DNA from: Bryobacterales bacterium
GTDB lineage: Bacteria > Acidobacteriota > Terriglobia > Bryobacterales > UBA6623
Assembly: GCA_963422375.2 (NCBI GenBank)
Contig: OY729428.2
Span: 1,760,001 to 1,824,000, forward strand
Direction of reading: 5' to 3'
Length of the DNA stretch: 64,000 bases
Numbering within the stretch: position 1 is the stretch's first letter; each line of letters begins with the position of its first letter. The position numbers were made by a program, and so were the translations under genes. This document shows positions 6,587 to 48,444 of this stretch, piece after piece. The notes under the pieces are model-generated. The model had not been told where the DNA came from. It ran no database searches and worked only from the letters and a program-made list of their open reading frames with translations.

Positions 6587-6693
6587 CCAGCGATTCTCAA
6601 TTTGGGCATTTGGGATTTCCAGAGTGTCTGAGAAAGGTGTCGAAGGCAGTCTGGCACTTGACTTTTGCTAGCGGAATGTGTGAGCTAGGGTGA

Positions 6694-8030
6694 ATGCCCC
6701 ATGTCCTGGACGCGCTGCTGAGCGCCTTCCGCGAGACGGCCGCCGGCCGGCCCGACCGGCGCGACGGTCGCCGCAACAAGCGCTACGAGGTCAGCGACGC
6801 CGCCGGTTGCGCCCCGGCCTGCTTCTTCACCCGGTGCGAGTCGTTCCTCGCGTTCCAGCGGCGCATGGAGCGGGACGGCTCGCGCTCCAACTGCCGGACC
6901 CTGTTCGGCGTGGGCCGCATCCCCTGCGACAACCGGATCCGCAACTTGCTCGACGATCTCGACCCGGCCGCGTGCGACCCGCTGTTCCGGCCGTGCCTCG
7001 CAACCGTGGCCGCGCAGGGCGCGCTCGAGCCCTTCCAGCGCCTCGACGAGCGCCTGCCGGCGGCTCCGGACGGCGTCCGGTTCCACCGCTCCGACAGGGT
7101 GCATTGCCCGCAGTGCTCGGTGCGGCGCGCCGGCAGCGAGCGCCGGCCGCATCACTTCCACGCCATGGCCGTCGGCCACGCCACGGTCCTGCCGCTGATG
7201 CCCGAGTTCGCGTGCCCGCAGCAGGACGCGGCCGCGACCCGCGCCGACATGAGCGAGGACGAGCGCAAGCAGGACTGCGAGCGCAACGCCGCCAAGCGCT
7301 GGCTCGCCGCTCAGGGCGCCTGGCTGCAGGCCTACCGCCCCGTCCTGCTGGGCGACGACCTGCACTGCTGCCAGCCGGTCTGCGAGGCCGCCGCGGCGGC
7401 CGGCATGGACTGCATCCGGGTATGCAAGCCCGGATCCCGCAAGCACTTGCACGAGGTGCCGGAGAGCCGGCGGGCGAGCGGCGCGGTGCGCTCGACCGGC
7501 TGGCTGCCGCGGCGCGGGAAGGGCAAGCGGTCCGAGCGGCACCGTTTCCGCCGGACGGCCGCGGTGCCCCTGCGCAAGGGCCGCGACGCCCTGCGGGGCA
7601 CTTGGATCGAGTACGCCGTGGAGCGCGACGGCAAGCGCACCTGCGCCAGCAGCTTCTTCGCCAGTCTCGCGGTCACCGCGGACAACCGCGGACAACGCGG
7701 AGCGGATCGCGCGCGCCGGCCGGGCGCGCTGGAAGATCGAGAACGAGGGCTGCAACTGCCTGGCGCGGCACGGCCGCAACTGCAAGCGCAACTTCGGGCA
7801 CGGCAAGGAAGGGCCGGCCAACGTGCCGGCCGTGCCGAACCCGTTCGCCTTCGCGCTCCGCGCCGTGGTGCAGTGCGTCTGCGCGCTGCGGCAGCAGTGC
7901 CGGCGCCAGCCGGTCACGCGCCGCGCCCTGTTCCGGGAGCTGCAGGTCGCGCTGCGCTGGTTCCGCTTCCCGGACCGGCCGACGCTGCTGGCAGCGGTGC
8001 GCGACGGACGCGCGCCTCCGGGCTGCCAGG
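6694..8030 (+). pseudogene. ISNCY-like transposase pseudogene (frameshift near 7685; 3' end approximate)
   Basis: FFTRCESFLAFQR, TLFGVGRIPCDNRIRNLLD, KQDCERNAAKRWL, LLGDDL; continues in another frame as GRARWKIENEG..HNFGHG-like; 10-bp duplication at 7675-7694. Confidence 0.85.
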
Positions 8031-8284
8031 CGGCCGGGGCCTGGATTCCGCGCAGTTTCGTGCCGGCAGCGTCCGGCCAGCGGCCGGCCGTCAAAGCCGG
8101 CTACCGCCGGAGTACGTCCGGCCGCGGGCTCGGCACTCCGCGGACCCGCGACGCGAGCCGCTCCACGGCCCTGCCCGCCGTCCGACGCTCCCGCGGGGCG
8201 GCCTCGGGAGCGCAACCTCTCGGTCAACTTATTCACCTCATCCTCCGAAACAACGTTCACGCACCCCCTTGACGGCTAAATTTA

Positions 8285-9433
8285 GGGAATTATATATCTG
8301 AGTGCCGAGGCAACCGATTTTGCAAATTATCAGTCCATAAATTAATTTCATATTTCTTCCAGAGATCTGTTGAAAGTCGGTGGATTATTTTGATAGAATA
8401 GTTCCAATATATGAGGTCGTATATGAAGCAGAAAGGTCCCGGGAAGTGGTTTCGTAAAGGCATCACTCTGATTGAAGTGATCGCCATATTCCGCGATGAC
8501 GAATCCGCGGAAAAGTGGTTCGCCTCCATGCGCTGGACCGACGGTCCGGTATGCCCCTTCTGCCGCGGCTCCAGCGTGCAGTCCGGCACGGCCCACCCTT
8601 CGATGCCGTACCGTTGCCGCGGCTGCGGCAGGCGCTTTTCCGTGCGCACCGGCAGCGTGATGGCCGACACCAAGCTCGGCTACCGCACCCGGGCCGTCGC
8701 CCTGTTCCTGCTGACTACCGGCATCAAGGGCGTCTCAAGTATGAAGTCAGGCACTCCGGCGGCGAGTACGTGCGCGGGGCAGCGCATGCGAACGGCATCG
8801 AATCGTTTGGGTCCCTGTTCAAGCGCGGCCTGTACGGAACCTATCACCGGATGAGCGTCCGTCATCTCGGCCGCTACCTGACGGAGTTCGCGGGACGGTG
8901 CAACGACCGCGACTGCGACACGGCGGAACGGATGCGGCGCATGGCGCGGGGCCTGGTCGGCCGGACGCTGACCTACCGGCAGCTGACCGGCAAGGCCGCG
9001 GTCGCGGCCCGAGCGGCGCCCTCCGAGCTGAGCGCCGCAGCCCGCTGCCGACGCACTCTTCACGCTCGATGCGCTTCACGCTCGGTGCGAGGGTCGCGCC
9101 GGCTCTGGAATCCCCCGGCGCGACCCGCGTCCGGCCCGGACCGTCCATGCAGGCCGTCGAGCGCCGGGGATCCGCTGTCTTCGGCCCTCGGAGGGCACGC
9201 AAGCGGCTTGCAAGGGGTGCCCTCCACCGCCAACCGGATTCCACCGGGGCATGCGAGGGGGCCTCTCTTATCCGTGCCTCGTCCATTCCGCTGGCAGGTT
9301 CGATTCAGATACGATCCCACTTTTCCGTGCCTACCGCGGCCGCATTCGAATGACCCCAGCCAGACGCCGACCTCCCTGCTCAGAGCAGTTCTCGTCGGAC
9401 ATGGCGTTGTCGGCACTCAGATATATAATTCCC
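8285..9433 (+). mobile_element. IS1595-family element A1 (ISNwi1-like ends), internally deleted transposase
   Basis: TIR GGGAATTATATATCTGAGTGCCGA at both ends; 8-bp TSD TAAATTTA (8277-8284, 9434-9441); Zn ribbon CPFC..CRGC; about 370 bp missing near 8746 relative to A2. Confidence 0.92.
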
Positions 9434-9451
9434 TAAATTTAGAACCGCTGG

Positions 9452-10200
9452 TGTATGCCGCAAGGCCCGAAGACTCCGACGAATCCTCGAACTGTCCATT
9501 CCCCAAGTTCCGATAGAGCGTCGGCGCCTGCCCTCGGTACTTGTTGGGGTGGCAGTAGGAGCGGTATCCGGGCCGTCGCTCGCCGCAATGCAAGTTCCCT
9601 TCGGTGGACCAATCCAAGTAATTGGCGATCGCGAGGTCGAGCAGCCCGTCAAGGTCGTAATCGAACCACGCTGCGCTCGTCCCCCACTTGCCTTGATTGG
9701 ATGTACCGGCCTCTCGGTGACATCGCGAAACGTCCCATCCCCTTCGTTCCGGAGCAGGACCGACCGCCCATAGCCGCTTACGGCCAAGTCCGTGTCCCCG
9801 TCGTTGTCGAAGTCGCCCGCGGCTAGGCCCATCGCGAACAGGTGTTCCAGCCCGACTCCAGTTCCGGGCCCGGCCACCTCGAATTTCCCATCCCCGATTG
9901 CTCGATAAAGAGCACCGACTAACGGGCTGGGCGGATCGAACTTGTCTGTAGCCGCACTGTTGGCCAGATACAGATCAAGGTTGCGGTCCCCGTCATAATC
10001 GAGCCACGCGGCCCCGCCCCCCATAGTCTCGATCAGGTACTTGTCAGCAGTCGCGGCGTTCTCGTGAACGAAGTCGATTCCTGATTCCCGCGTTACGTCA
10101 ACGAATTCGACAGTCGCCCGCGCCAACGCGTCCTGGCAATTCGCGGGAGGCGTAGCGTGCCATGCGGACGCGCCAGCGAGCAGCAGCCGGATCGCGACCT
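9452..10200 (-). pseudogene. CRTAC1/ASPIC-UnbV (FG-GAP repeat) protein, frameshifted and 3'-truncated by IS; start approximate
   Basis: FVDVTRESGIDFVH, KYLIETMGGGAAWLDYDGD, GDFDNDGDTDL, LYRNLGNGQFED; 1-bp frameshift near 9711; ends at the IS boundary 9451. Confidence 0.85.
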
Positions 10201-10789
10201 GCCGCCCCCGGCCAAACCGTGGCACTGGGCTACCGGTCGCGAGCAGTTGCAAGCAGGCGCGCGATGCATAGTAGGCAAGATGTCCGTGCCGAGTCTGGCG
10301 TCTCGGCGGGGCGGTGGCCGTCTTAGTCCGCATGTTGAAGTGTTGGAGACCGCTGCAATCAGCGCGTCGAACCTATCCAGTCGTTCAGTCTGTCGCGTTT
10401 CGTCGGAATGGCCCGGCCGGGCAGGGCCACCCGAGGCTCGGGCAGGTCGGGGGGCTGGTGGCGACGAACGGACCGCGAGTGTCTCCGCCCGCGCACTGTC
10501 TCTAAGAGTCGGTCGCGACCCATGGTGTCCGACCATCGCGGGAAGTCCGAGTCTTTGAACGGCTGCAAGGCAAGGTCTCAATCCCGAAAACCCCCAGGAC
10601 AATCTCTGTGAATCAGAAGAAAAGCTCGCCTGCGTCTGATGCTCTCCTCGCGAAGACATCGGGACGGTGGCACACGCTGAAAGGTGCGTGTTGCCCAGCG
10701 AAGCGTTCATTCTTGGGGGATGTAGTCGAATCGAAGTGCCGGGGACTACCCTCGATTCCCGCCAGAATCCGCCTTAGAAGCCAACTCGG

Positions 10790-10831
10790 CTGGCACCGAG
10801 GGGCCTGCCGACCAGACCCCCTCGGTGCCAG
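10790..10831 (-). terminator. 14-bp GC stem-loop 22 bp downstream of the TonB receptor stop
   Basis: CTGGCACCGAGGGG ... CCCCTCGGTGCCAG perfect inverted repeat; no clear U-tract. Confidence 0.5.
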
Positions 10832-11379
10832 GCTCGTTCAGGAGCAATGGGGTCAGAAGACGACCTTGACTCCGAACTGGATGTTCCGTGCGCCGAACGT
10901 GCTGGCGACTCGCCCGAAATTGCCGCTCTGCAGGCTGCCGTTCACCGAGCCTAGGTTGACGTGGTTGAAGACGTTGAAGAACTCCGCCCGCAGGTCGATA
11001 CGACCGCCCTCGCCGAGCAGCGGCACGCGAATCTGCCGTAGAAGGTTCAGGTCCGCGTTGGCGAAGCCCGGGTTTGTGAAGGTGTTGCGTCCCAGCGTGC
11101 CCGGGCGGACGGACTGCAGTTTCGGGAAATCCGCCGCGGTGAACAGGCCGTTTATGTAGTGCTTGTGACAAAACCATGATATTTTGGGGATTCTAGCTGA
11201 TAGATCCCGACCAAATGATAGCTATGGAAGAAACAAGCTGTGCCAATTAACCGCACTCATTGCCTTATATTCCATTTTCATTGTGAGGATACAGTTAGTT
11301 CTGTTCTAGTTGTACACTTTTCCTGAACCTTGTCTCTTCAAGGTTTCAATTCAGGGCAATTCAGATCGCTGCAGACTGC

Positions 11380-12885
11380 CTATGCAGCCAGCGGCAAGGG
11401 TCCCGTCTTGAGACGCTCCCTCTCTCTGTCGCGCTCTCTGTCGCGCACGATCCGGCCCACTCGATGCACGTTCGCCGCCAGGACCGCTAGCCCGATCATC
11501 CGCTCGAATCCCTCCGCTCCCCGGTCCGTCACCCCGTCCGGACCGCGGCACTCGAGATTGTTGATCGCGGACTCCACGGCCGGGTGCGCCTGCCTCGCTG
11601 CCGCGAATTCGGGCGCGCCTTCCGTCTCCTTCGCCGCCTTCGACCGCCTCCCCTTCCGCGGCATCGCGTGGCACGACAGCAGTTCCCCCAAGCGCGTCCG
11701 GTTCGCCGGGCTGTGAAAGCCCTTGTCGAAGCTGCAGCTCGACAGCCCCGCGTACAGCCCCTGCGCCCCCTCGACGATTCCCACCGCCACGTCCGCGTCG
11801 CTGCCCTTCCACGTCACTTCGTGATTCATCACGAATCGGTGCTCGCTTTCCACGATGCATACCGGCACGCCCGGCTCCACCGGCACCCCCGCTTTTCCTT
11901 GCACGCACCAGCGCGTGTGTTCCTCGAAGATCGAGAACACTTTCCCCTCGTGCGGGATCTTCTCCCCCCGCAGCACGCGCCGCTCCACCGGGTCCGCCAG
12001 GAGCTGCACGCACCCGAGGTAACTCCTTGCCGCTCCCAAGGTTCCCTCGTCTTCCCCGGCCCGCTCCAGGGCCGCCAGCGCACCCTCCGCCCGCCGCGCT
12101 ATCTCCAGGGCCGCCTCCAGGTACGACCGCACCCTCTCCGGGTTGGCTTTCCTCCTCTTCGCCTGCCGCACCCGGTTGAATTCCTGCTTCAGCGTCTTCG
12201 GCAGCCGCGCGCTCTGCCGCCAGCCGGCGATACCGCGCCCCTTGCACAGCGGCGCAATAGAGCGAATCAGGCAGCGCACCGCGTCCCATAGAAGACTCAC
12301 GTCCGTCGGGTAATGCACGTTCGTTTCCACCGCGAAAGAGTCGCACCGCGCCTTCAGCGGATCGCCTTCCTCGCACCCCGCCAGCGCGTGCCCTTCCTGC
12401 ACCACCAGCTGATTGATTTCCGCGAGGAGGTCGGGCGTGAGAAGCTTCGGATTCCGGTTGACTGTCCGGTAGCTGAAGACCCGCTCGTCGAGCGTCGCGT
12501 TCAGACCGAGGAAGCGCCGGACGTCCGCATGCTTGTTCGCCAGCTCCGTCACGCGGTCGCAGTCGCAATTCAATCCCTGCTTGAGCAGGCCCGGGACGAG
12601 AATGTTCCACAGCTGCATGCCGGGACGACCGAGGGCAGGGTTGATCCTGCCGGACTCGCCTGCGGAAGGATCGCTTCCGTTCCCGCCGTTCCCGCTACTC
12701 TCGCCGAGGCCGAGGATACGGCTCTCGAGCAGTGCGAAAACCCTGTCCCGCAACTCCTCGGTGCGATAGATAGATTGTATTCCTAGCAAGATGGCCGGGA
12801 TATCGTCGCGGGAACGGACGTCGGGATCGATATCCTCGATTGCAGTCCGGCCAAGGGTGAGCTGGATCTCCTGAACGGTCCTCAC
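11380..12885 (-). CDS. ISNCY (ISDol1-like) transposase; open frame but with several L->P changes
   Basis: GTG start after GAGGAA; RSRDDIP, GRPGMQLW, DSFAVETNVHYPTD, KIPHEGKVFSIFE, SFDKGF, VESAINNLE. Confidence 0.85.
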   Translation of the reverse strand: MRTVQEIQLTLGRTAIEDIDPDVRSRDDIPAILLGIQSIYRTEELRDRVFALLESRILGLGESSGNGGNGSDPSAGESGRINPALGRPGMQLWNILVPGLLKQGLNCDCDRVTELANKHADVRRFLGLNATLDERVFSYRTVNRNPKLLTPDLLAEINQLVVQEGHALAGCEEGDPLKARCDSFAVETNVHYPTDVSLLWDAVRCLIRSIAPLCKGRGIAGWRQSARLPKTLKQEFNRVRQAKRRKANPERVRSYLEAALEIARRAEGALAALERAGEDEGTLGAARSYLGCVQLLADPVERRVLRGEKIPHEGKVFSIFEEHTRWCVQGKAGVPVEPGVPVCIVESEHRFVMNHEVTWKGSDADVAVGIVEGAQGLYAGLSSCSFDKGFHSPANRTRLGELLSCHAMPRKGRRSKAAKETEGAPEFAAARQAHPAVESAINNLECRGPDGVTDRGAEGFERMIGLAVLAANVHRVGRIVRDRERDRERERLKTGPLPLAA

Positions 12886-12906
12886 GGGCGGTTCCTCAAC
12901 GAAGAT

Positions 12907-13961
12907 CCTGATTACCAACGAACGTCAGCCGAGGATAGGCTATACTGAAGGAGGTCGGAAATCTCTGATAGGAAAGGGGATAGCAGCTGAAACGCAATCG
13001 CGTGCAATGCCAGAAGGGACTCAGCCCGGGCAAGTTCCTGCAGCGCTACGGCAGCGAGGGGCCATGCGAGCAGGCCGTCTTCAAGGCCCGCCGGCCGGAC
13101 GGCTTCCGCTGCCCGGAGTGCGGCTCCCGCCGGCACTGCCGCATCCGCTCCCGCAAGCTCCGGCAGTGCCACGCCTGCCACCGCCGGACCTCCCTCGTCG
13201 CCGGCACGATCTTCGCCGCCACCAAGCTGCCGCTGACCGTCCGGTTCCTGGCGCTCCACCTGCTGACGCAGGGCCAGCACGGCGTTTCGTCGCTGGAACT
13301 GGCGCGGCAGCCGGGCGTGAGCCGGAACACGGCTTGGAAGGTGAAGCACAAGCTCCTGCAAGTGCTGAAGGAGCGCGACGAGCGCGTGCCGCCGGGCGGC
13401 ATCGTGCAGGTGGACGACGCCTACTGGGGCCTGCTGGGGCGGGGAGCGGACCGGCGGCAAGCGCGGTCGCGGCGCGGCGGGCAAGACGCCGTTCGTCGCC
13501 GCCGTGCAGGTCACCGCCGCCGGCCAGCCGGCAAGGATGCGCCTGAGCAGCGTGGCGGGCTTGCGCAAGAAGACGCTGGCAGCATGGGCCGGGCGGCACT
13601 TGCAGCCCGGCACGGAGGTGCATTCCGACGGCCCGGCCTGCTTCCGGGGCGTGGCCGACGCCGGCTGCGAGCACGTGCCGACCGTCACCGGAGGCGGGCA
13701 GCGGAGCTGCGGGGATTCCCGCTTCGTCCGGGTCAACGTCCGGGTCAACACGATGCTGGCGAACGTCAAGCAGTCCCTGGCGGGAACCTGCCATGCGCTC
13801 GACGGCAAGCACCTGCCGCGGTACCTCGCCGAGTTCCGCTACCGCTTCAACCGCCGCTACGATCTGGAGGCGCTGGTCCCCCGCCTGCTCCACGCCTCCG
13901 TGCGCACCCCGCCCAGGCCTTTCCGCCTCCTAACCTTGGCTGAGTCTTGTGGGTAATCAGG
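12907..13961 (+). mobile_element. IS1595-family element B1 (CCTGATT ends), transposase pseudogene
   Basis: TIR CCTGATTACC..TCAGCC; TSD ACGAAGAT (12899-12906, 13962-13969); start ATG->CTG; frameshift at 13421-13440; YLAEFRYRFNRR. Confidence 0.93.
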
Positions 13962-16791
13962 ACGAAGATTGTCGCACAACCCCCGGAAACGCGCAAGCCG
14001 GCCCGGATCGCCCCGATCTTCGTCCCACGGACCTGCTGCAACCTCCCGGAAACTAAGGGCTTGCGCGTTCTGTCACAAGCACTATGTAGTCCTGCCTGGA
14101 GGCTCCGTCGATCGAGCTTCCGAAAGCCGGGGTGTCCGGGTAATCGTTGTTGAGTCCGTCGGCGTTGAAGTCGCAGCCGTTGTTTCCGATCATGTTGCCG
14201 CTGTCGTCGAAGACCGGATTGAAGGGCAGCCCGCAGTTGACCGTGAACGGGGACCCAGTCTGCAGGATCGAGGTCAGCCCGAACTGCCATCCGCCGAAGA
14301 TCGCCTTGCCCGGGCCGTTCCGAAATGGCGACGGAATTTCGAAGATCAGGCTGGTCGCGAACTTCTGCCGCACGTCGAAGCGCGAGCGCCCGCGGTTCAG
14401 GCGCATGTTCGTCAGCTCGATCAAGTGCTCGCCAGAAAAGCTGCTGGCTGTGTCGATCGCCTTCCCGAACGTGTAGGCCCCTTGGAATAGCAGGCCATGC
14501 GCGAAGCGCTTCTTGAGGCTGAGGTTGCCTCCGTGGTAGTACGACTTGCCGTTGTTCTGGCCGTACGTGATGCTGCCGAAACTGGGGTTCAGGCGGTCCA
14601 GCCGCCCGTCCAGCAGATCGCCCGCGAAGCGGTTGACCTCGTAGTTCTGGTACAGTTTCGATCCCTGAGAGCCCACGTAGTTGGCTTCGACCGCCCAGTC
14701 GTTGCCCAAGGCGTACTGGATGCCGAAGAACCAGTTGATGGCGTATTGATTCTTCAGGTCCGGCTCCCATATCTGGATCGCCGCCGGCACGCCGACCAGC
14801 ACGCCGCGCTCGTCGAGCCCGATCTGGAGATCCGGCGGGCGCGGGAACTGCCACGGCGACTCCATGGTGCTGCTCAGGCCGTAGACCGGCTGCGCGTCGG
14901 TCTGCTTGCTGACGTCCGCCACCGCGAAGATCGGCAGGCTCGTGCAGCAGTCTCGGTAGAACTGGCCGCCGGGACGGTCGTAGAACATCCCCGCCCCGCC
15001 GCGGATGGACATCTTGCCCCGCCCGGTCGGGTCCCACGCGATACCGAGACGCGGCGCGACGTTGTTCATGTCGGTCGAGGCCAAAGGCGGCCCCTGCCTC
15101 ACGCCGACGTCGGCGATCCGCTCCGTGAAGTTGCTGCCGCCGCGAAAGTTGGCGCCGACGAAGATGGCGTCCAGGTCGGTCGGGATCGGGAAGGCCTCCC
15201 AGCGGACGCCCCAGCTGACGGTGAGATTGGGCCGGACCTTCCAGTCGTCGTTGACGAACATTCCGAAGTTCGTGAAGCGCGGGCGGAAGTCGAAGCCGCG
15301 TGCGTCGCCCGTGGCCGGGTCGAATCCGATGTTGCCGTGCGAGAACGGGTCGTCCAGGATGAAGTCCCAGGTGTTGTTGAAGCCGTAATTCGGACGCTCC
15401 CAGACCGCGGCGAACAGGGCGCCCGCGCCGGGGGAGCCGCTGTCGCAGTTGAAGTTCCCGCCGAACTTGAACGAGTGCGAGCCCTTGTTCCACGTGGTCA
15501 CGTTGCGCCACTGCTGGTTGTTCTGGATGAAGACCGCGTCGGAGAACCCTTGCCCGTAGCTGGAGATTCCGGGCACGTTGATCAGGGGAATCTCGCCGCG
15601 TCCGATGGGCGCGTCGCCCTCTGCGTGCTACCGGGACCACGAGAGCTCGTTGATGACGTTGGTCGAGATGATGCGGGTCCAGTTCAGGTTGGCGAAGGCC
15701 GTCCACTGCTCCTGCATTTTCGTGAAGGCCGGATAGACCGAGGGGTTGCCGAACAAGACCTGCTGATTGGTGGTTCGGGCCACGCTGCCGTAGATGCGGT
15801 CCCTGCTCTCGTTGAAGTTGTGGTCGATCCTAGTCGTCCATTGCAGGCCGTCCCGCGGGAGCGTCTGGGCGAAGGACCCGCGCTCGGTCACGGGGAAATT
15901 GCAGGGCATCATGCCGATGGGCGTCTCGATGGGAGTCGTGCCGGAGCAGTCCGAGCCGGCCAGCCCCCCGGCTGTCTGCGCAACTGCCTTGTTAGTCAGG
16001 ATGTCGGGAAACTCGTTCATCACCATGCTGCTGATGTTGTCCGGGTATCGCTGGCGCACGAAATCGGCGAACTGCCGGCTCACTACGGTGTTGCTGAATC
16101 CGGCCCCGACGCCGGAACGCAGGATGTCCATCGAGGCAAAGGCGAAGGTGCGGTTCCTGAGGATCGGCCCGCCGAGACTCCAGTTGGCCTCGTTGCGGCG
16201 GAACACCGGCACCTTGGGCTGAAAGAGGTTGCGTGCCTGCATCTTGTTGTTGGTGTGGTACCAGCCCAAGGTGCCGTGGTAGTCGTTGGTGCCTGACTTG
16301 GTGACCACATTGACGAGGACCGAGGAGTTCCGACCGTATTCCGCGGAGAAGTTGTTGACGGAGACGCGGAGCTCCTGCACGGAGTCGGCGTTTGGGTTGT
16401 GGTTGACGACGCCGCCGCGCGGGCTGGCGTTGACGGAGGCGCCGTCGACGTTGAAGCTGTTGGACTCGGCGCGCTGGCCGTTGCCGCTGAGGTTGACGCC
16501 GTACTCGGCCGAGAAGATGTCTCCGGTGGCCTGCGCGTAGGCCTGCCCGCCTCCGGACGGCAGGCCTACCACGCCTGGCGTGAGCACCACCAGCGTCATG
16601 AAGTTGCGCCCGACCAGCGGCAGGTCCGCGACCTCCATCTCCTCGATCTGCCCGGACACCTGCGCCTCGCCGGTCTCGATGAGCGGCGCTTCCGAGGTCA
16701 CGCTGACGGTCTCGGTAGTCTGGCCCACCTCGAGCTGGATGTTTAGGGTGGTGGTCTGCGCGACCTCTAGCGTCACCCGTTCCTGGACGTA

Positions 16792-17944
16792 CTGAGGGGC
16801 GCAAAAGTCGTTCTGGCCGTTCGCGCCCTCTGCTGAGACCAGTTCCGACACTTGAACGTGGTAGAATTGTTGCATGAATCCCTTCCAATTCGACGACTTT
16901 CGGCGACTCCATCATAAGCTTGAGATTACCGTTCGAAAGTTCGTCTTCACGCAATTCACGCTCGGCTATGTTCCGGAAGAACTCGCGATGAAATTCGGCA
17001 TCGGAACCGGAACGGTCAAGTCCTGGGTGGCTAGATTCATCGCCGGAGGCATGGGGGCACTGGATGATCGGCCCGGAACTGGACGCCCTCGCATCTTGAC
17101 CGAGGAGCACGCGCAGTGGATCTTCCATACCGTCGTCGATAAGAATCCCCGGCAGCTCAAGTTCGAGTTCGCCTACTGGACCGTCCAGAGAGTCCGCCGC
17201 GCTTTCATCGACGAGTTCGGCATCGACGCGAGCCGCTGTGCCATCCGCCGCGTCATGCGTCGGCTCAGGCTCACGCCGCAGAAGCCTCGCTTCCGGGCAT
17301 TCCAGCGCCGGACGGGGCAAGTCGCGCGATGGATTGACACGACATTCCCGGAAATCAAGCAGGAGGCCGAGCGGGAAGGGGCCTTGATCATGTTCGCTGA
17401 AGAGGCCGGAATGCGCTCCGACTATCACGTGGGACGGACGTCGAGAGTGCGCGGACAGACGCCCGAGGTGACCTGCACGGCCACGAAGTTTCGCTTCAAC
17501 ATGCTGGCAGCGATCAGCCCGGACGGCCGCATCCATTACATGCTGCACGAGGGCGCGGCGGATGCTGGAAGGTTCTGCTCGTTCGTGAAGCAGGTGGCGG
17601 AAGAGACCGGCAGGAAGGTGCGCTTCGTAGTGGACGGCTGCCGGATTCGCACGGCGCGAGAGGTGGCGAGTTTCCTCGAGAAGGAATTCGAGGACGGGCA
17701 CGTGAGGATTCGTATTCTTCCGGCGTACTCCCCGATGCTGAACCCAGCTGAGCTGCTACGGTCGCACGTGAAGCGGATGGTGAGCCGGAAATGCTTCAAG
17801 ACCGAGGACGAGCTGTTGCGCCTGCTCGAGGCGGAATTCAAGTCGCTAAGGGACTTGACTGACAAGGTGGCTCGCTTCTTCAAGGAGCCCGATTGCAAGT
17901 ACATTCTGGCGTGACCCGCCCGAGACGACTTTTGCGCTCCTCAG
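16792..17944 (+). mobile_element. IS630-family element
   Basis: TIR CTGAGG(G/A)GCGCAAAAGTCGT (19/20); TA target duplication (16790-16791, 17945-17946). Confidence 0.93.
16874..17914 (+). CDS. IS630 transposase (first catalytic Asp appears replaced: FAEEAG)
   Basis: GRPRIL, WT..V, LTPQKP, VVDG, LPAYSPMLNPAE. Confidence 0.88.
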   Translation: MNPFQFDDFRRLHHKLEITVRKFVFTQFTLGYVPEELAMKFGIGTGTVKSWVARFIAGGMGALDDRPGTGRPRILTEEHAQWIFHTVVDKNPRQLKFEFAYWTVQRVRRAFIDEFGIDASRCAIRRVMRRLRLTPQKPRFRAFQRRTGQVARWIDTTFPEIKQEAEREGALIMFAEEAGMRSDYHVGRTSRVRGQTPEVTCTATKFRFNMLAAISPDGRIHYMLHEGAADAGRFCSFVKQVAEETGRKVRFVVDGCRIRTAREVASFLEKEFEDGHVRIRILPAYSPMLNPAELLRSHVKRMVSRKCFKTEDELLRLLEAEFKSLRDLTDKVARFFKEPDCKYILA

Positions 17945-18499
17945 TAGGTCTGGAACCCCTCCGCGCTTGCCGTGACCCGGTAGGTGCTGGCCGCCAAGGC
18001 GGTCGCGCGGTAGCGCCCGACACTCGAGGTCTCAAGCGTGCGAGTCGTGCCAGTAGCGACGTCCTCGATAATGACCTCGACCGCGGGAATCACGGCGTCG
18101 GTCGGATCGCTGATCGTTCCCTCGAGAATACTGCTGAACTGCGCCTGCAGGCCAAGTGTGCCGACCAGCAGCAGGACCAGTGGGCGGAGCATCCGCCCGG
18201 CGCGCCGCATACGGCGAGAAGCAGGACTCCCTGCCCGTGATCGATGATTCATTCGCTCTCCCTCTGGTCCTGGCGCTGCGGCTGGTCAGCCCCGATAGCC
18301 GCCAATATGGTAGAGCATTCCGGCTGGCGCATCGCTACACCGGATTACGCTGAACGGGGAATTCAGGGCTCACCACGAGGCCTGCCATTCAGTCCGACCG
18401 ATATTCATCCGTGTCTGCGAGCCAGCTCTTCGAGGGCCGAGCCACGAGGCACCTGAGGACCGGAGTTGCGAAGGCGGAGCAGCGTGCTTTGACCGTCAC

Positions 18500-18826
18500 C
18501 GACCGGTGGGTAACGAGATCGGTCGGACCGGGGCACTCCAGCCCGAGATTCGTCGCCCGCAACGCCTTCGGCGTGACGCGGTGCAGGAGCGCCGTCAGTT
18601 TCTTCTCCCGCAGCTACCTGTTCACTGGCTGCCGTACGCGTTCGGTGCCGCTTGGCATGGATCCGCGACTCTGCGTCCAGCCCGAGTCGGCTGGTCCCGT
18701 CTTTCCCTTGATCCCGGCCATTCACTCCGGCGGCTCCGGCGGGACTCGCGCCCCTTTGGTCGCCGCCTTCGTCGCTACGACGCCCGGGTCTGACTTCTGC
18801 GCGCCGTGCATCCGCGACTCCGGCTC
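18500..18826 (-). pseudogene. Group II intron remnant: upstream intron RNA segment plus degenerate N-terminus of the RT/maturase; boundaries approximate
   Basis: Minus-strand frame from 18679 reads WTQSRGSMPSGTERVRQPVNR*LREKKLTALLHRVTPKALRA, resembling the RTQ..ERVR..KFTALLHHV start of bacterial intron RTs; adjacent 18720-18826 resembles intron RNA from recollection. Confidence 0.65.
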
Positions 18827-18886
18827 ACGGTGTAGGGGCCCACTTTGTTCAGTTGGATCACCGCCGTGCTTTCGCGAATTGGATTG

Positions 18887-19940
18887 ATACGGTTATGCAC
18901 TTAGCTCTAGTATGCTCAAAGTTTGCGCTGCGAGCGGAGGTGTCGGGCGATGGGAAGCGATTCCGAGGCGTTCCCGCGGAACGCGGAACATCCTCGAATG
19001 CATGGAGCGGTTCGGTACGGAGCGGGCGTGCGCCGAGTACCTGGCCGCCGTGCGCTGGCCGCGCGGTTGCGCCTGCCCGCGCTGCGCGGGCGCCGAGGCG
19101 TGGACGACTGCGCGCGGCATCCTGTTCTGCAAGGCGTGCCGCCGGCAGACCTCCCCGACGGCCGGCACGGTCCTGCACAAGTCGCGCGTGCCGTGGCGCG
19201 GCTGGTTCCTCGCGATGCGGCTGGCTTGCACGCAGCAGACCGGGCCGAGCGCGGCGGGCTTGCAGCGCGAGCTCGGGCCGGGCAGCTACCGCACGGCCTG
19301 GCTGCTGCTGGCTGCTGCTGCCAGAGCTTCGCTCGGCGATGGCGAGGCTGGGCCGCGAACGCCTGCAGGGGGCGGTCGAGGTGGACGAGGCGTATGACGA
19401 GGCGTATGTCGGAGGCGCGGAAAAGGGCGTTTGCGGGAGGGAACCGGCCGAAAAGTGCCTGGTCGCGGTCGCCGCGGAGCTGGAGGGGCATGGCGCGGGG
19501 CGCATCCGCCTCCGGCACGTGCCGGACGCCTCGGGGGCGAGCCTGGCGGGTTAGGTAGCGGACTGCGTCGAGCCGGGCAGCCTCGTGCAGACGGACGGTT
19601 GGAGCGGCTATCGCAGCCTCGAGCGGCGCGGGTACCGGCATCAAGTGACCGTCACGCGCGGCAGCGGGGACGTTGCGGGCACGGCGTTTCCGCAAGTCCA
19701 CTGGGTGATCTCGCTGCTGAAGCGCTGGCTGCCGGCCACGCATCAGGGCAAGGTCGGCGCGAAGCACTTGCAGCTCTATCTCGACGAGTTCACGTTCCGC
19801 TTCAACCGGCGTCGGTCGCGTCACGTTGGCAAGATCTTCTACCGGCTCTTGGAGCAACTGGTCTTGCAGCGAGCGGCTACGTACCAAGAGCTAATCGACA
19901 GGCCGGAACAGCCTGACTAGAGCTAAGTGCATAACCGTAT
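18887..19940 (+). mobile_element. IS1595-family element C (ISSod11-like transposase), pseudogene
   Basis: Perfect 24-bp TIR ATACGGTTATGCACTTAGCTCTAG; CPRC..CKAC, VEVDE, TDGW, SLLKRWL, YLDEFTFRFNRR; frameshift near 19310, TAG at 19552; no TSD. Confidence 0.9.
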
Positions 19941-19943
19941 TCA

Positions 19944-19963
19944 GGGGTTTTGTCACAAGCACT
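19944..19963. mobile_element. Isolated terminal stub of the ISDol1-like element
   Basis: GGTTTTGTCACAAGCACT is the reverse complement of the 11158 TIR AGTGCTTGTGACAAAACC. Confidence 0.7.
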
Positions 19964-23414: not shown

Positions 23415-23423
23415 AAATTAATT

Positions 23424-38656: not shown

Positions 38657-40207
<1,551 letters not shown>

Positions 40208-40330: not shown

Positions 40331-41863
40331 GGAAATTATATATCTGAGTGCCGACAACGCCATGGTCCGACTAGAACTGCTGTGAGCAGGGAGGTGGGTG
40401 TCGAGCTGGGGTCATGCGAGTGCGGCCGCGGCGGGCACAGAGGGGTGGGGTGTGGGATCGTATCTGAATCGAGCCTGCCAGCGGATTGGACGAGGAAGGG
40501 ACTAGAGAGGCCGCCTCGCATGCCCCGGTGGAACCCGGTTGGCGGTGGCAGGGCACGCCTTGCAAGCCGCTTGCAGGCCCTGCGAGGGCCGATGACAGCG
40601 GATCCCCGGCGCTCGACGGCCTGCATGGACGGTCCGGGCCGGACCGGGGTCGCGCCGGGGCATTCCGCATCCGGTGCGCCCCTCGCACCGAGCGTGAAGC
40701 GCACCGAGCGTGAAGCGCGCGCCCGCAGCGGGCTGCCGCGCTCAGCGCGGCGGGCGCCGCTCAGGCCGCGACCGCGGCCTTGCCGGTCAGCTGCCGGTAG
40801 GTCAGCGTCCGGCCGACCAAGCCCCGCGCCATGCGCCGCATCCGTTCCGCCGTGTCGCAGTCGCGGTTGTTGCACCGTCCCGCGAACTCCGTGAGGTAGC
40901 GGCCGAGATGACGGACGCTCATCCGGTGATAGGTTCCGTACAGGCCGCGCTTGAACAGGGACCGGAACGATTCGATGCCGTTCGTATGCGCTGCCCCGCG
41001 CACGTACTCGCCGCCGGAGCGCCGGAGTGCCTGACGGCTTCGTGCGGGAACTCCGCCATGCCGGCGTAGGCCGCCGCCTCGTCGGAGCGGACCTGCGCCC
41101 CCGGCGCGACGCGGGCGCGCGCGAAGCCCTGCAGGTCGCCCTCGGCGGTGCCCGGCAGCGGCCGCGCGGCCGCTGCGTTCGTGGCGCGGTCGCGCGCCCC
41201 CGCCACCGGGGTCTTGCCGACGGGCCCGCGCCCGGCGCGGGCCTTCTTCCTCTCGTGCTTGTTGCGTCCCTTGCCGCCGACGTAGGTCTCGTCCACTTCC
41301 ACCGGGCCGGCGAACAGGCCCCGATCCCGCTCCCGGCACGCGCGGATGCGGTGCGCGAGGTGCCGGGCCGACTTCCGGCTGATGCCTAGGTCGCGGTGCA
41401 GCTTCATGCTCGAGACGCCCTTGATGCCGGTGGTCAGCAGGAACAGGGCGACGGCCCGGGTGCGGTAGCCGAGCTCGGTGTCGGCCGTCACGCTGCCGGT
41501 GCGCACGGAAAAGCGCTTGCCGCAGCCGCGGCAACGGTACGGCATCGAAGGGTGGGCCGCGCCGGACTGCACGCTGGAGCCGCGGCAGCGGGGGCACGCG
41601 GGACCGTCCGGCCAGCGCATGGAGGCGAACCACTTTTCCGCGGATTCGTCATCGCGGAACATGGCGATCACTTCAATCAGAGTGATGCCTTTACGAAACC
41701 ACTTCCCGGGACCTTTCTGCTTCATATACGATCTCATATCTTGAAACTATTCTACCAAGAAACACTACCGAATGTCAACGGAACTCCGGAAGAAATAGGA
41801 AAATATCTAGTGGCATGATAATTTGTCGGCTTGGTTCCCTCGGCACTCAGATATATAATTCCC
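40331..41863 (-). mobile_element. IS1595-family element A3; frameshifted transposase 40761-41725
   Basis: Same TIRs as A1 and A2; TSD AATCTTCG / AATCTTTG (7/8); shares the 8-bp duplication with A2. Confidence 0.92.
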
Positions 41864-42203
41864 AATCTTTGACGGTGCCCTCGATGCCCGCGGTTCTGCG
41901 ATTCGGGCGGGGATGCGGCGCAACGGTGCAGTCGAGCAGCGCGGGGTTCCGCTCGGGGACTCTTTCCAAGCGGCTTCCCTTGTCCAGCACGTAGCCGCCC
42001 GCTCTCCGTCGATCCTGATCAGGTCGGCCCGAGCTCGCTTCGAGCGGCCCTCGCCCCTTCCGAGAATCCGGGGACAACCCGCCACTCTCCTCAGCATGCG
42101 GACCAGTGCTGCCTCCCATTGGCTGGCCAACCTCGGCGAGTTTTCATGTGGCGGCTCTGGAGGCGTGCCATTCGCTCCATTCCACGAATGCAACGATACA
42201 AAC

Positions 42204-43575
42204 CGCCCATTCAACTCCGAAGTGCGACACGCGCCGAGCCACAAGATGGCAGGGAGGGGAGAGGGGGGCAGCGAGCGGTGGTGTCGCGGCAGTAGGCTGG
42301 TAGGTGCTGGAAGGAGCAGGGAGGCGGATGCGGAAGAGCTACACGCACGTGACGCAGGAGGAGCGCTGCCGGATCGAGACGCTGCGGGCGGCGGGCTGGG
42401 GAGCGGGCAGGATCGCCGGGCAGCCGGGCCGCAACCGGGCCACGATCTACCGGGAAGTGAGCCGCAACGGCCGACCGGCGGAGGGCGAGCGCGCGGCGAG
42501 CTACAGCTTGGGGAGCGCGCGGGAGCGCGCGGAGCGGCGGCGGCGCGCGGCGTCGTGCCGGCCGCGCCAGCTGACGTCGGCGCTGCGGACGCGGATCGAG
42601 GACTGCCTGCGGCAGGACTGGAGCCCGGAGCAGGAGCCCGGAGCAGGTCGCGGCGCGGCTGAAGCGGGAAGGGGCGCTGGAGATCAGCCCTGAACGGATC
42701 TACCAGCTGGTGCGCGCGGAGCGGCGGCAGGGGGGCCGGCTGTACCGGCACCTGAGGCAGGGCGGCCGCAAGCGCGTGCGGCGGGTCGGCCGGACGGCGG
42801 GCCGCGGCCTGATCCCGGGGCGCGCGGACATCGCGGAGCGCCCGGCGGAGGCGCGAGCGCTGGTGACGCTGGTGGACCGGTTCTCTCAGTACCTGCTAGT
42901 GCAGCCGGTTAGCCGGCGCACGGCGCAGCTGGTCGGGGCGGCGATGACGGCCATGCTCGCAGGGAGCGGGGCCGTGACGCACACGCTCACGGCCGACAAC
43001 GGCAAGGAGTTCGCGGCAAGGAGTTCGCGGGGCACCGGGAGGTGGTGCAGCGGCTGGGGGCGGGCTTCTACTGCGCGCGGCCCTGCCACTCCTGGGAGCG
43101 CGGGCTGAACGAGCCTGCCAACGGGCTGCCGCGGCAGTACTTCCCGCAGGGGACGGACCTGCGGCGAGTGGACCCGGCCCGGGTGCGGGAGGCGCGGGAC
43201 CGCCTGAACCGGCGTCCGCGGAAGGTGCCGGGCGGGCGCACGCCGGAGGAAGTCTTCCCGGCGGAGCGGGAGCGGGTGCCGCGGGGCTGAGGCAGGGCTG
43301 GCAGCCCGCCGCCCCGGACAGGGGCGCGGGGGAGCTGCGCCCGGACAGGCGCGGACTCGACCCTCCGGGCCTTGCTGCGGTCGCTCCGCTCCCTGCGCAA
43401 GGCCCGGAGGGTCCCCGTTCCGGAAACGGGGCACGCCTGCCCGCCTGCCCGGGACGCGGCCCCCCGCTGCGGCCCGGCAGCGGCTTGTCCGGCGCCGCTG
43501 GATCTGCTACTGTGGTCCTAGTATCCCAGCCCACCGCCCCTTACCCGCGTGTCGCACTTCGGAGTTGAATGGGCG
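42204..43575 (+). mobile_element. IS30-family element; transposase pseudogene 42328-43290
   Basis: Perfect 30-bp TIR CGCCCATTCAACTCCGAAGTGCGACACGCG; 3-bp TSD AAC; TIYREVSRN, WSPEQ, TLTADNGKEFA, SWERGLNE, LNRRPRK; duplications and an apparent internal deletion. Confidence 0.93.
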
Positions 43576-44080
43576 AACATTATCGCTAGGCAACATAGCT
43601 GGGAGCAAGAGGGCCTTCAGGGAGGTCTGCGTTATTTCTTCCCAGAACAACCGCGAATTCTCACTCTGGCCAAGGGATTCTTCTGCCCGTTCTGGTCACG
43701 GGTCTGATCAATTAATAGAAGTAGTCCCCGGGAATTGACGAGTACAATCTCATTCCTGAGACGACGCGAAACATCGTAGTTCCGCTCGCGGTCCCCACCT
43801 GCAGCGCTCGCTGCGACGACCTCGCCGACGGGGATCTGCTCCAAGCGGGCATGGAACTACGGGGCACTGGGATCTCGACTCGGCAGCGGCGTAAGGCCCG
43901 TGCCGGCGGAGTGGCACGGTCTGGGCCAAGGGCGGACGGCCGGCGAGCCGTGCGCCGCACCGGCGGAAGCGCCCGGCCGAACCGGAGATCCGGGCCGGGA
44001 CTGGTCGAGAGTGCCCGCGCGAGTGAATGCCCCGGCTCCGGCCGTGTCGCGGGATCGCGATTCGCAGTAGGGTGTAAGGC

Positions 44081-45934: not shown

Positions 45935-46062
45935 ATTGGGGCCGGGCCGGGGCTGCTTCGGACCTGCGTGCGCCGCAGCGCTGCCGCACGCCTGCGCTAC
46001 CCGCGCCCGACCCGCGACTCGGTCAGCTGCTGACGCCGACGCGACCGTGTGCCCGGCCGCCC

Positions 46063-48444
46063 TTACGGCTCGCTGCCGGAGGCGATGAAGTCGCGGTGCC
46101 GCTCGACAGCCTCGAGAATCGCAGCGACCGTCTGGGGCTCGCGGTCGGCAACGTCCCAGCGCTCGCCCGCATCCGTGCTGAGGTCGAACAGGAGGGGATG
46201 ATCATGCTTCCGGTTATTGGCGTATCCGCGCCACCCGATCTGCCTCTCGGTGCCCAGGGACTCCCACGACTCGAAGTCCAGCTTGTGACTCCCGACGCGG
46301 GCGGCCCAGAGGTTGCCCGGCTGGCCGTAGTAGAACCATTCAGTCCGGGCGCTCGGCTCTCCGCTCAAGAGCGTCGGCGAGAGGTCGAGCGAGTCAAGCC
46401 CGGAGGTCTCCGGCAGCGGTGCGCCCGCAATCGACGAGACGGTGGCCAGCAGGGCGACGTTGACGTCGATCCCGTCGATGACCGCCGGGCGGACGCGGCC
46501 AGGCCACCAGAAGATCGCGGGGACGCGGAAGCCGCCCTCCCACGACGTGATCTTGCCGTCCCTGAGGTGGCCGGACGATCCGCCGAGATCGGTCCGTTGT
46601 CGCTGCTGAACCAAACCACGGTGTCCCCCGCGACGCCCAAATCCTCCAGGGCCCTGGTGATTGCTCCCACGGACCAGTCGAGTTCCTCGATCACGTCGCC
46701 GTACATGCCGGCGCTGCTGCGGTCCTCGAATTCCGGCGAGCGGAAAAGGGGCACGTGCGGCATGCTGTTTGCAGGGAACAGGAAGAACGGCGAGTCGCCT
46801 TGCTCGCGGATCCACCGGACCGATTCCTCGGTGTAGCGCTTGGTTAGCGTCGGCTGGTGGGCGGGAGTTTCGATCGCCGCGCGCTGGCGGTAGAGGGTGA
46901 TCGGGAAGTCCGCGCTGGTCGAGTTCCGGATGTTCTCATAGGTCCGCTCGAAGCCTTCCCGTAGCGGAGCGTCGTTGCTGCCGACCAGTCCGAAGAAGTA
47001 GTCGAAGCCTTGGTCGTTGGGATGCGCTCCCCGGTAGTCGAACCGGGCGCTGAGGCTCCACTTGCCCACGTACGCCGTGGAGTAGCCGGGCCCTTGAGCG
47101 TTTCGGCGAGCGTGACTTCGCTGTCGGGCACGTCGGCCCACCTGTTCCTGCCGTCGCCGTGAATGCGGATCGGCATCCGCCCTGTCAGCAGCGCCACGCG
47201 GCTCGGGTTGCACAACGGCGCCGAGGCGTAGAACGAGGTCCCCCGCTGCCCCGCCGGGGTCCGTGCCCGGGGTGCCGCCGGGCGCGCGCCGGGCCTCGAC
47301 GGCCGCCCGCAACGGGGCCGCGCGCCGCTCCGGCACCGCGTTCTTCTGCAGGCACGCCACGCACTCCAGGCCCTCGCGCTCGCCATAGGCCGGCAGCTCG
47401 TCCCCTTGGAGGCCCGCGTCCAGGCGCAGGCGCAGCGTCGTCCGCGGGAAGAATTCCCGCAGCAGCGGCAGCAAGCGCTCCAGCAGCGGCAGCAAGCCCT
47501 CCGCGGCCGTGCCCGAGCGCAGCAGCGCCGCCGCGAGATGCCGCTCGCGCTCGTCGTCGAAGCGCACCGCGCCCGCCAGCGACAAGTAGCAATGCGTGTC
47601 GTAGAAGCCGTTGCACAGCGCCAGCTGCCGGCCCCCGTGCGTCGGCTCGCAGGCCGGGTCGAAGTCCGGCTCGACGATGCTGGTCTCGGGGCGCCGCTCG
47701 TGCCGGCGCCGCACGACGCAGCGGGCCGGCACCGCGGACAGCGCGCTCGGCGCGTCCGCGGTGACGGCGTTCTCGAAGCGCGACAGGGTGGGCCGGGACG
47801 GCAGGTCGCGACCCTGCCAGGGGTCGCGCCCGAGCGGCAGCTTGAACACGGGGTCGCCGCCGAGGCGCCCGGCGTCGTGGCAGTCCTCCTAGCCGCGGGC
47901 GAGGCCGTGGACGCGCTGGCGGAGCCTGTCGGCGAGGGAGTGGAGCACCTTGGAGACCTTGGAGGGCTGGCGCCGGTCGCGCAGGCAGCCGGCGAACGCC
48001 GCGGTGAGGCCGGGAGCGCGGTCGGCGGCCTCGACCGGGACAGCGCCGCCGTCGGAGCTGCTGCGCTCGTGATCGAAGCGGACGGCGACGGGGCGACGGC
48101 GCGGATTGCGGAACGGAACGCCTTGGGAGCCTGCGGATGCGACCATGCATTCATTATAACCTACCGGATGAAAACAATTTCAGCGTATAAACTTGGATCT
48201 CAATCGGACCGGGCCGGGGCTGCCGCCGGGGATCGCAGGGCACTCCTAGGAGTGAGGATCACGCTGGACCGTGGGCCCTCACGGCCCGGGCGGAGGGACC
48301 GGACTATGGCCCTCCGGGCTACTCATGAATTATCCGGGCTAGGGCGAGGGCCAGGCATGCTGCTCCGGCTCGCTGCAACGGCCGACCCGCGAGGAAGCGG
48401 AGGGCAAGCGCGATTGCCGCGTGGATTGCGTGGGAATGCTGCAT
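46063..48444 (-). pseudogene. Sulfatase pseudogene interrupted by an IS1380 remnant, with further frameshifts
   Basis: Leader 48339-48444 (MQHS...ACLALALA); resumes near 47255 with CNPSRVALLTGR, GKW, PHVPL, SDNGP, WEGGFRVP, LFDLSTD.GE in changing frames. Confidence 0.82.
47256..48338 (-). mobile_element. IS1380-family element, 3'-truncated, transposase pseudogene
   Basis: End CCCGGATAATTCATGA next to CTAG (48339-48342); SSDGGA, RQRVHGLARG*ED, DPVFK, SRPTLSRFEN, NGFYD, RLDAG. Confidence 0.85.

Follow-up and report, generated by a model that had tools for sequence, protein, structure and literature searches.

One-way T-to-C change before GG in insertion sequences of a Bryobacterales bacterium and its possible origin in biased conversion between copies

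Results

Insertion sequences of the window

The window, a stretch of 64,000 nucleotides, harbors copies of several insertion sequence (IS) families and a TonB-dependent receptor pseudogene which was used as a control (Table 1). The label of family A follows a preliminary description of this DNA and the similarity to homologues, as the tested frames have no Pfam match. The insertion of family D into the family C copy has its joint at 12898–13962. Genome-wide, repeats with at least three copies make up 9.3% of the sequence.

Table 1. Elements of the window (positions of the whole stretch)
Element	Position	Strand	Remarks
IS family A copy, ISNCY-like	6588–8285	+	~45 copies per site
IS1595 family B copy, partial	8285–9433	+	contains site 8690
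ISNCY family C copy	11155–14090	-	13–16 copies; interrupted by family D insertion
IS1595 family D copy	12907–13965	+	~98 copies; sites 13092, 13161, 13425, 13757
TonB-dependent receptor pseudogene (control)	14084–16789	-	91% identical to intact paralogue on C1
IS630-type copy, family E	16780–17940	+	4–6 copies
Low-copy IS1595 remnant	18888–19950	+	L>P at both motifs named in the preliminary description, plus stop
IS1595 family D copy	20715–21756	-	
IS1595 family B copy	21871–23414	+	~100 copies; sites 22276, 22369, 22399
IS1595 family D copy	23424–24456	+	sites 23609, 23678, 23942, 24252
IS1595 family B copy	40331–41863	-	sites 41335, 41365
IS30-type remnant, family F	42204–43575	+	~20 copies; rve match below cut-off
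Remnant presumed to be of IS1380 type, family G	47240–48345	-	~22 copies

The preliminary description had listed seven differences between paralogous copies in which a C in place of T creates CCGG and destroys a Trp or Leu, and had explained them by a CCGG-specific hypermutation. All seven pairs differ as described and the C allele creates CCGG in each of them, with T being the ancestral allele according to the outgroups. The loss of a conserved residue holds for four of the seven sites, which lie in near-invariant columns (W in 10/10 outgroup sequences at 13092, L in 9/9 at 24252, W in 34/35 at 8690 and in 33/35 at 41365); the columns at 13161, 23942, and 41335 are variable and mix W, F, and L, with R not among the commonest residues. 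Each C allele is present in 9–90 of the 88–105 copies across the genome. Hypermutation is therefore not supported, because the alleles are common to many copies and did not arise separately. C(T/C)GG sites account for 13 of the 392 substitutions in six overlapping pair comparisons within the window. The altered family motifs named there are all found in the sequence; a comparison with homologues covered the motifs of the two IS1595 families, of ISNCY-A and ISNCY-C, and of the low-copy IS1595, and those of IS30 and IS1380 were seen without an outgroup. TTG alleles are present among the copies for DGPAC, LPAAPDG, and ILVPG, so these are two-step changes.

Direction and context of the spreading changes

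In four IS families, changes were polarised at codons that are conserved in the outgroups (families E, F, and G, being without outgroup, were left out, family E also for its low copy number), and a derived allele was regarded as spread when found in at least 10% of the copies. No closer outgroups were found (one weak locus; the next sequence after the own copies stands at 57%). T>C had spread at 70 of 545 sites and C>T at 5 of 723, which bears out the proposed direction, opposite to deamination. CTGG is the top context (22/39 vs 48/506 for all other T, p=1e-11), and the suggested enrichment beyond chance is thus correct. The suggested specificity for CTGG/CCGG is not: other TGG sites behave alike (17/42, p=0.18), and T>C had spread at 11/12 TGGG and 6/6 TAGG sites. 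Since CTGG is inseparable from other TGG and all TAGG sites are affected, the drive is not CCGG-specific; the one-way drive is real and broader than CCGG. The CTGG share of the damage is 15–24%, and CCGG>CTGG had spread at 0 of 30 sites. A second one-way class is T>G (24/578 vs 6/976 for C>A).

When only sites with any derived allele are considered, the spread fraction is 70/149 for T>C (39/49 at TGG, 31/100 elsewhere), 16/86 for C>G, and 5/126 for C>T (C>T vs C>G, p=0.0007), and T>G again exceeds C>A (24/96 vs 6/56, p=0.036). As had been proposed, the same change occurs in unrelated IS families: family A has 33 derived changes in 220 conserved codons, seven of them at CTGG, and family C has 11 in 162; when family C was polarised again against 118 protein outgroups, T>C was counted at 14/156 and C>T at 1/198. 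The effect is seen on both ORF strands. An unpolarised count gave 50/138 at CTGG vs 43/170 at other TGG (p=0.046) and 343/3069 at non-GG sites. A majority-consensus count, in which CCGG>CTGG exceeds CTGG>CCGG in six of seven families, was dropped as the consensus is often derived and holds many damaging alleles, which masked the signal. Genome-wide 4-mer counts show neither CTGG depletion (1.06) nor CCGG excess (1.04). Templating by quasi-palindromes or direct repeats was also dropped, there being no clear increase by arm length.

Exchange of alleles between copies

In the assembly the IS copies behave as a recombining pool in which linkage is lost within ~30 bp. In family D all four gametes are found in 3301 of 3486 site pairs. 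Linkage between sites decays steeply, r2 being 0.37 at 1 bp and 0.02 past 32 bp (independence, 0.011). Shared runs exceed those after permutation of the site order (22.8 vs 19.7±0.6 in family D, 25.7 vs 22.0±0.8 in family B). Within the three closest trios, 56 of 60 changes are alleles present in at least three other copies, and ten of these common changes are the outgroup-ancestral allele. The linkage decay, the shared tracts, and the shared recent changes support the earlier guess of heteroduplexes between copies. Recent events at GG favor T>C (18 per 30.7 vs 29 per 96.5 donor-weighted exposure for C>T, p=0.039), a bias of ~2:1 that is one of four tests and comes from clusters which may hold chance neighbors; no bias was found in recent events outside GG.

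Host sequences and congeners

The TonB pseudogene was said to be without obvious W>R or L>P decay, and indeed non-synonymous T>C at CTGG is found at 1 of 53 sites. The restriction to repeats among decaying sequences holds as well: 35 host pseudogene regions have no CTGG excess (CTGG 2/69, other TGG 5/93, other 48/1084) and 35 mobile-element remnants gave 20/111, 11/116, and 106/1521, in a control that is noisy (references at least 38% identical) and includes pseudogenes that may be young. In 55 intact host regions the CTGG count is 0/118. In 284 gene pairs, host synonymous sites have lost TpG relative to congeners, with 2937:893 before G and 4660:2666 elsewhere; among the TGG contexts this loss is weakest at CTGG (2.9 vs 3.9–4.3). 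The IS context ranking is not tracked by the lineage-specific synonymous shift (rho 0.25, p=0.35) and anticorrelates with the synonymous T content (rho -0.69).

In three younger IS families of congeners the signal is absent (TGG 0/29, 0/28, and 0/11); three other congener families were dropped for want of an outgroup and the G016 copies lay outside the comparison. Congener G042 displays a T>G (A:T>C:G) spectrum instead.

Repair genes and methylation

Both Vsr- and NucS-type endonucleases had been put forward as candidates. Vsr is present as one PF03852 match, a 145-aa ORF at C2:2578614 which appears whole and which 29 of 30 congeners have too, and NucS was not found (no PF01939 match in the genome, which is 96% complete). 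The 3.2-kb vsr locus has no linked C5 methyltransferase; 18 PF00145 matches, several of them duplicated or broken, lie elsewhere. RecA, MutS, and MutL are likewise present as open frames, and there are two UDG-family and three HhH-GPD matches. No special gene for repeat inactivation was found by the genome search. The proposed CCGG methylase is not supported, as rare CCGG>CTGG changes are at baseline (3.95 vs ~3.9 per 1000); at the second C of CCWGG the rare rate is 8.7 per 1000 (11 events).

Discussion

The polarised counts show that weak-to-strong changes reach high frequency whereas strong-to-weak changes are rare, and that the skew peaks at T before GG or AGG. The best reading is inter-copy gene conversion with a short-patch repair biased from T:G to C:G, which we consider somewhat probable. 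Old, high-copy IS families would form recombining pools in which copies at unrelated sites swap patches of tens of bases by ectopic recombination. A T:G mismatch in the heteroduplex between two copies would then mostly lose its T, this bias presumably being strongest in (C/G)TGG and TAGG; a weaker bias may act on A:C/T:C-type mismatches. With ~100 copies a small bias could suffice for a family-wide sweep of T>C, indifferent to the loss of Trp, Leu, Gln, His, or Tyr. The enzyme may be the lone Vsr with a relaxed context, perhaps together with MutL; Vsr enzymes with broad context that cleave CTGG/CCGG have been described (PMC6116569). Transposase death would be a by-product growing with copy number, and the same bias in recombination between strains would account for the synonymous TpG loss of the host. 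Whether T:G repair on IS heteroduplexes acts as a copy-number ratchet, by which successful families are extinguished through their own recombination, is a more tentative proposal.

A mutation bias that depends on sequence context, with an increased rate of T>C at TGG and a decreased rate of C>T, combined with unbiased conversion and transposition is a less likely explanation but one to be taken seriously; Vsr misfixing replication errors or a past mutator phase could be the source, and E. coli Vsr is able to promote CTAGG-to-CCAGG mutation (PMC2715241). The genome-wide synonymous TpG loss, the anticorrelation with synonymous T content, and the apparent lack of conversion bias outside GG speak for it, as does the excess of rare T>C at TGG, 1.56-fold with already-spread sites out of the denominator (7.1 vs 4.6 per 1000, p=0.008). 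We compared both models in simulations tuned by hand. The mutation model comes near the hot fraction of TGG (0.36–0.41 vs 0.48 observed) but over-predicts the rare TGG excess (3–5-fold; biased conversion gives 0.5–0.65-fold), the TGG "any" fraction (0.85–0.89 vs 0.60), and the hot fraction of C>T (0.024–0.039 vs 0.007). For TGG, C>T, T>G, and C>A, biased conversion reproduces both the any and the hot fractions observed, its singletons requiring an extra private phase and its short-range r2 being 0.02 vs 0.24–0.37 observed. Other points against biased conversion are the TGG effect outside ORFs, which lacks significance, the synonymous TGG count of 3/7 vs 69/205, the three younger congener families without a TGG signal in genomes that have Vsr, and the synonymous shift that departs from the IS context ranking. 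Hotspot mutation without conversion was rejected, as it turns nearly all TGG sites hot and zero transversions. The lack of a TGG excess in host pseudogenes also stands against a mutation bias, although a time-varying spectrum would evade both this comparison and the simulations.

Selection, by purging of missense changes during transposition or by a host benefit from dead transposases, appears improbable. T sites are more often polymorphic at synonymous positions (69/205) than at non-synonymous ones (39/511 conserved, 65/629 variable), and the TGG effect is greatest at conserved codons and weak outside ORFs (5/25 vs 50/410, not significant), which could be expected under selection. However, none of 197 stop-creating changes has spread, the direction, the DNA context, and the effect on both strands are left unexplained, and selection at a single locus cannot carry an allele to other loci.

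A dedicated, CCGG-specific inactivation of repeats, the RIP-like process of the preliminary description, is largely refuted by the context tests, and we give it very little credence. CTGG is indeed the top 4-mer, host pseudogenes are spared, and all 89 near-full copies of family D and all 27 of family A are damaged (at least 10 and at least 22 hits per copy, respectively). On the contrary, other TGG and TAGG sites are affected similarly, T>G is driven too, and both a CCGG deamination signal and a special gene are lacking. In addition, the process is not a dedicated defense against transposons because host synonymous sites have lost TpG in parallel, least so at CTGG among the TGG contexts. An artefact of assembly or base calling, caused by errors linked to methylation or by a polishing step that blends the alleles of different copies and could produce mosaics, is just as improbable given the clean CTGG sites of intact host regions, the apparently whole Vsr and MTA phosphorylase proteins, unique pieces identical to contigs that two runs of two separate studies provided, the fragmentation of the IS copies into ~1000–1400 pieces as genuine inter-copy variation would cause, and the nested multi-step alleles.

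Fungal repeat-induced point mutation (RIP) acts in the C>T direction on repeated DNA only, mutates each copy independently, and creates many new stops. The decay described here is alike in that repeats decay one way while single-copy pseudogenes are spared. Likeness to RIP nevertheless fails, as the direction is opposite, the alleles are shared, stops do not spread, and host synonymous sites are shifted too. With GC-biased gene conversion and the concerted evolution of multi-copy sequences the present case has in common the conversion between homologues, the high frequency of weak-to-strong and rarity of strong-to-weak alleles, and the spread of damage; it differs in concerning dispersed bacterial IS copies with a strong 3′ context (TGG, TAGG). 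The operation of such conversion in bacteria is debated (PMC11879095) and conversion between bacterial repeats has rarely been confirmed (PMC4444293), as far as the accessible text of these sources goes. Very-short-patch repair (E. coli Dcm/Vsr; Neisseria V.NgoAXIII and V.NgoAXIV) turns T:G into C:G in short patches, as is proposed here; TAGG and CTGG are favored, and the genome carries a vsr gene of putative activity. Unlike dcm-vsr, this locus has no methylase ORF, and the context is a gradient and not a single site. Among symbionts with IS expansions, Sodalis SOPE has hundreds of IS copies with >94% identity, many of them pseudogenised and with conversion suggested (PMC3914690), and Wolbachia has old degraded copies (PMC3205602); a directional, context-dependent spread of missense changes is not reported in the accessible parts of these two sources. 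Our literature search, which covered titles and abstract openings with subscription papers mostly outside it, found no account of IS copies in a bacterium being converted in one direction.

The debate on bacterial GC content and biased gene conversion is open because recombination also sharpens selection (PMC11879095). In the present case the favored alleles destroy invariant transposase residues, so that selection for GC-rich codons is excluded as the cause. As ~100 copies per genome provide a frequency spectrum without population sampling, biased conversion in bacteria becomes directly testable. If the ratchet is true, biased gene conversion that overrides protein function would be demonstrated directly within a single bacterial genome; more copies should mean a faster sweep of damaging T>C alleles in a family, and congeners would vary in their repair signature, G042 having T>G where this genome has T>C at TGG. 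High-copy IS families could thus die without a dedicated defense gene. The majority consensus of old IS families should not be equated with the ancestral sequence.

Direction and context of the changes

The window lies at C2:1760001-1824000 of the studied genome (G000; 6.0 Mb, 67% GC, three contigs), which, judging by the names of homologues, probably belongs to Bryobacterales. Repeats with at least three copies make up 9.3% of the genome. Seven multi-copy IS families are represented in the window: A and C (ISNCY-like; about 45 and 14 copies per site), B and D (IS1595; about 100 and 98), E (IS630-type; about 5), F (IS30-type; about 20) and G (IS1380-type; about 22). Their copies are 94–97% identical to their own consensus, and most sampled congener families show 98–99.9%, which a passage of PMC3205602 describes as the usual state of bacterial IS. 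A fragment adjoining a family A copy (see table) shares about 80% identity with the 5′ end of family B and probably represents an older or sister element. Genome-wide, families A, B, D, F and G contain many insertions of 7–19 bp, often tandem duplications, which are common to 4–23 copies and unlinked to adjacent SNPs.

The seven paralogue T/C differences of the preliminary description are all as described, the C allele of each being carried by 9–90 of 88–105 copies. Scored against the majority consensus the T>C signal is masked or inverted, since in many cases this consensus itself has the damaging allele; therefore we polarised the changes with homologous congener transposases. The polarised set comprises 713 codons of families A–D conserved in at least 80% of at least five outgroups (E, F and G have no outgroup). 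We counted non-synonymous single changes with the ancestral codon still present, and considered changes in at least 10% of the copies as spread. T>C had spread at 70/545 compared to 5/723 for C>T, and T>G at 24/578 compared to 6/976 for C>A; C>G reached 16/1007 and T>A 1/581. Using 118 protein outgroups for family C gave a concordant result (T>C 14/156, C>T 1/198).

By context, spread T>C amounts to 22/39 in CTGG, 17/42 in other TGG (p=0.18) and 31/464 at other T, with 11/12 in TGGG and 6/6 in TAGG, and CCGG>CTGG to 0/30. The larger unpolarised set gives 50/138 for CTGG and 43/170 for other TGG (p=0.046) versus 343/3069 for non-GG contexts, and its ranking falls smoothly to 0.06 for TCC and TTC. 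The effect is present on both ORF strands. From both sets of counts it follows that the T>C drive is real and forms a gradient, with C or G before the T and purines, above all G, after it, and with CTGG as peak. Thus, of the CTGG/CCAG-specific change proposed previously, the direction and the top rank of CTGG hold, but the specificity for CCGG does not.

The share of damaging changes at conserved codons is 15–24% for CTGG, 28–44% for all TGG and 41–89% for all T>C. Among near-full copies, 89/89 of family D carry at least 10 and 27/27 of family A at least 22 damaging changes; families B and C retain a few copies with 1–3. Two results do not fit a simple account: outside ORFs the TGG effect is not significant (5/25 vs 50/410), and synonymous sites are polymorphic more often than missense sites, suggesting past purifying selection.

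Exchange between copies and a probable bias in spread

Alleles move between the IS copies. In family D all four gametes occur in 3301/3486 pairs of common sites, and r2 drops from 0.37 at 1 bp to 0.06 at 8–15 bp; past 32 bp it is about 0.02 (independence, 0.011). Minor-allele counts follow roughly 1/i from three copies up, plus a singleton excess. Shared runs exceed those in 30 permutations of site order (D, 22.8 vs 19.7±0.6; B, 25.7 vs 22.0±0.8). In the three closest trios at unrelated insertion sites, 56/60 lineage-specific changes are alleles present in at least three other copies; ten, including two adjacent pairs, equal the outgroup-ancestral allele, which in some of these cases may have been kept all along. 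In a hand-tuned simulation that lacks conversion, neither TGG sites free of change nor frequent transversions arise. For templating by palindromes or repeats in the vicinity there was no clear trend.

The decay of the IS families is real, directional and spread by conversion, and we lean towards biased conversion between copies as its cause. Among sites with any derived allele, the allele is common at 39/49 for T>C in TGG and 31/100 for other T>C, at 16/86 for C>G and at 5/126 for C>T (p=0.0007 between the last two classes). Scaled to donor frequency, recent events are equal for most classes (0.25–0.31), with T>A at 0.08; at GG, T>C reaches 0.585 and C>T 0.30, a difference with p=0.039 in one of four tests. 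Simulated biased conversion fits the fractions of sites with any derived allele and with one in at least 10% of copies (TGG 0.54/0.43, observed 0.60/0.48; C>T 0.18/0.009, observed 0.17/0.007).

Mutation bias combined with neutral conversion appears possible but rather doubtful. Rare T>C variants are enriched at TGG (45/6337 vs 361/78904 elsewhere, p=0.008), although only 1.56-fold, and the corresponding simulation overshoots both any TGG change (0.85–0.89) and C>T in at least 10% of copies (0.024–0.039). The observed rare TGG excess lies between the two simulations; short-range linkage is not reproduced by the simulations. Selection we regard as improbable. A dedicated CCGG defence is very unlikely and a CCGG-specific process is rejected, as other TGG contexts behave like CTGG; nor is the decay RIP, to which it had been likened. 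An assembly or base-calling artefact is equally unlikely: intact genes are free of the effect, and contigs from two sequencing runs of separate studies (library not on record) cover all 30 bins, the longer unique pieces among those listed mostly matching without difference.

Host sequences and congeners

As controls, 311 leftover regions with protein matches were collected, 130 of them with enough columns. T>C amounts to 2/69 in CTGG, 5/93 in other TGG and 48/1084 elsewhere in 35 host-family pseudogene regions, and to 20/111, 11/116 and 106/1521 in 35 mobile-element remnants; 55 intact host regions gave 0/118 in CTGG. The TonB pseudogene of the window, reported before to be free of obvious W→R or L→P decay, shows 1/53 in CTGG against its intact paralogue (83–91% identical), but is young. 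Three IS insertions and a single stop disrupt its locus.

Across 284 gene pairs with four congeners plus nine mrp loci, synonymous differences with T in the congener and C in G000 outnumber the reverse by 2937:893 before G and 4660:2666 elsewhere; therefore, over long times the bias is not confined to IS. CTGG is here the weakest TGG context (2.9; others 3.9–4.3). The IS context ranking anticorrelates with synonymous T content (rho −0.69 in G000, −0.57 in congeners) but does not correlate with the lineage-specific synonymous shift (rho 0.25, p=0.35).

Three younger congener families lack the TGG signal (0/29, 0/28, 0/11). An ISNCY-like family of the congener G042 (L145–L164, 16 copies) has a one-way drive of different spectrum, with shared derived missense T>G (A>C) at 10/234 and T>C at 0/218 at conserved codons; its singletons are mostly C>T (19/30).

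With the IS decay, biased gene conversion in bacteria, a subject of debate (PMC11879095), can be tested free of selection.

Repair and methylation genes

Of the enzymes previously considered, Vsr and C5-methylases have matches in G000, whereas NucS was not found. The single vsr gene (145 aa) has no methylase at its locus, and its neighbour is presumably a methylthioadenosine phosphorylase-like gene. Vsr, also found in 29/30 congeners, is a candidate agent of the T>C drive. Characterised Vsr enzymes cleave CTGG/CCGG or any context (a passage in PMC6116569); for the E. coli enzyme, stimulation of CTAGG-to-CCAGG mutation is described (an excerpt of PMC2715241). MutS, MutL and RecA have open frames.

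Rare CCGG>CTGG changes occur at baseline rate, which speaks against the CCGG methylation considered previously. In CCWGG, rare C>T changes of the second C reach about twice baseline (11 events), and CCTGG/CCAGG is depleted genome-wide (0.67 of Markov expectation; other NCTGG 1.1–1.2). Together these hint at methylation of CCWGG rather than CCGG; they possibly reflect Dcm-type methylation or restriction avoidance. Several of the 18 C5-methylase matches are duplicated or broken. An element with C5-methylase genes recurs, 96–99.9% identical, at two or three locations as well as at the ends of contigs, and the contig breaks lie within it.

Locations of features in G000
Feature	Location	Length
vsr locus (L013)	C2:2577114-2580332	3.2 kb
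C5-methylase element	C1:1-21509, C1:1824034-1844793, C2:1307817-1350163, C3:1-28679, C3:479729-494722	20–40 kb
Family B-like fragment	window 6173-6588	
TonB-receptor locus	window 9447-18830	
Intact TonB paralogue	C1:977135-982523
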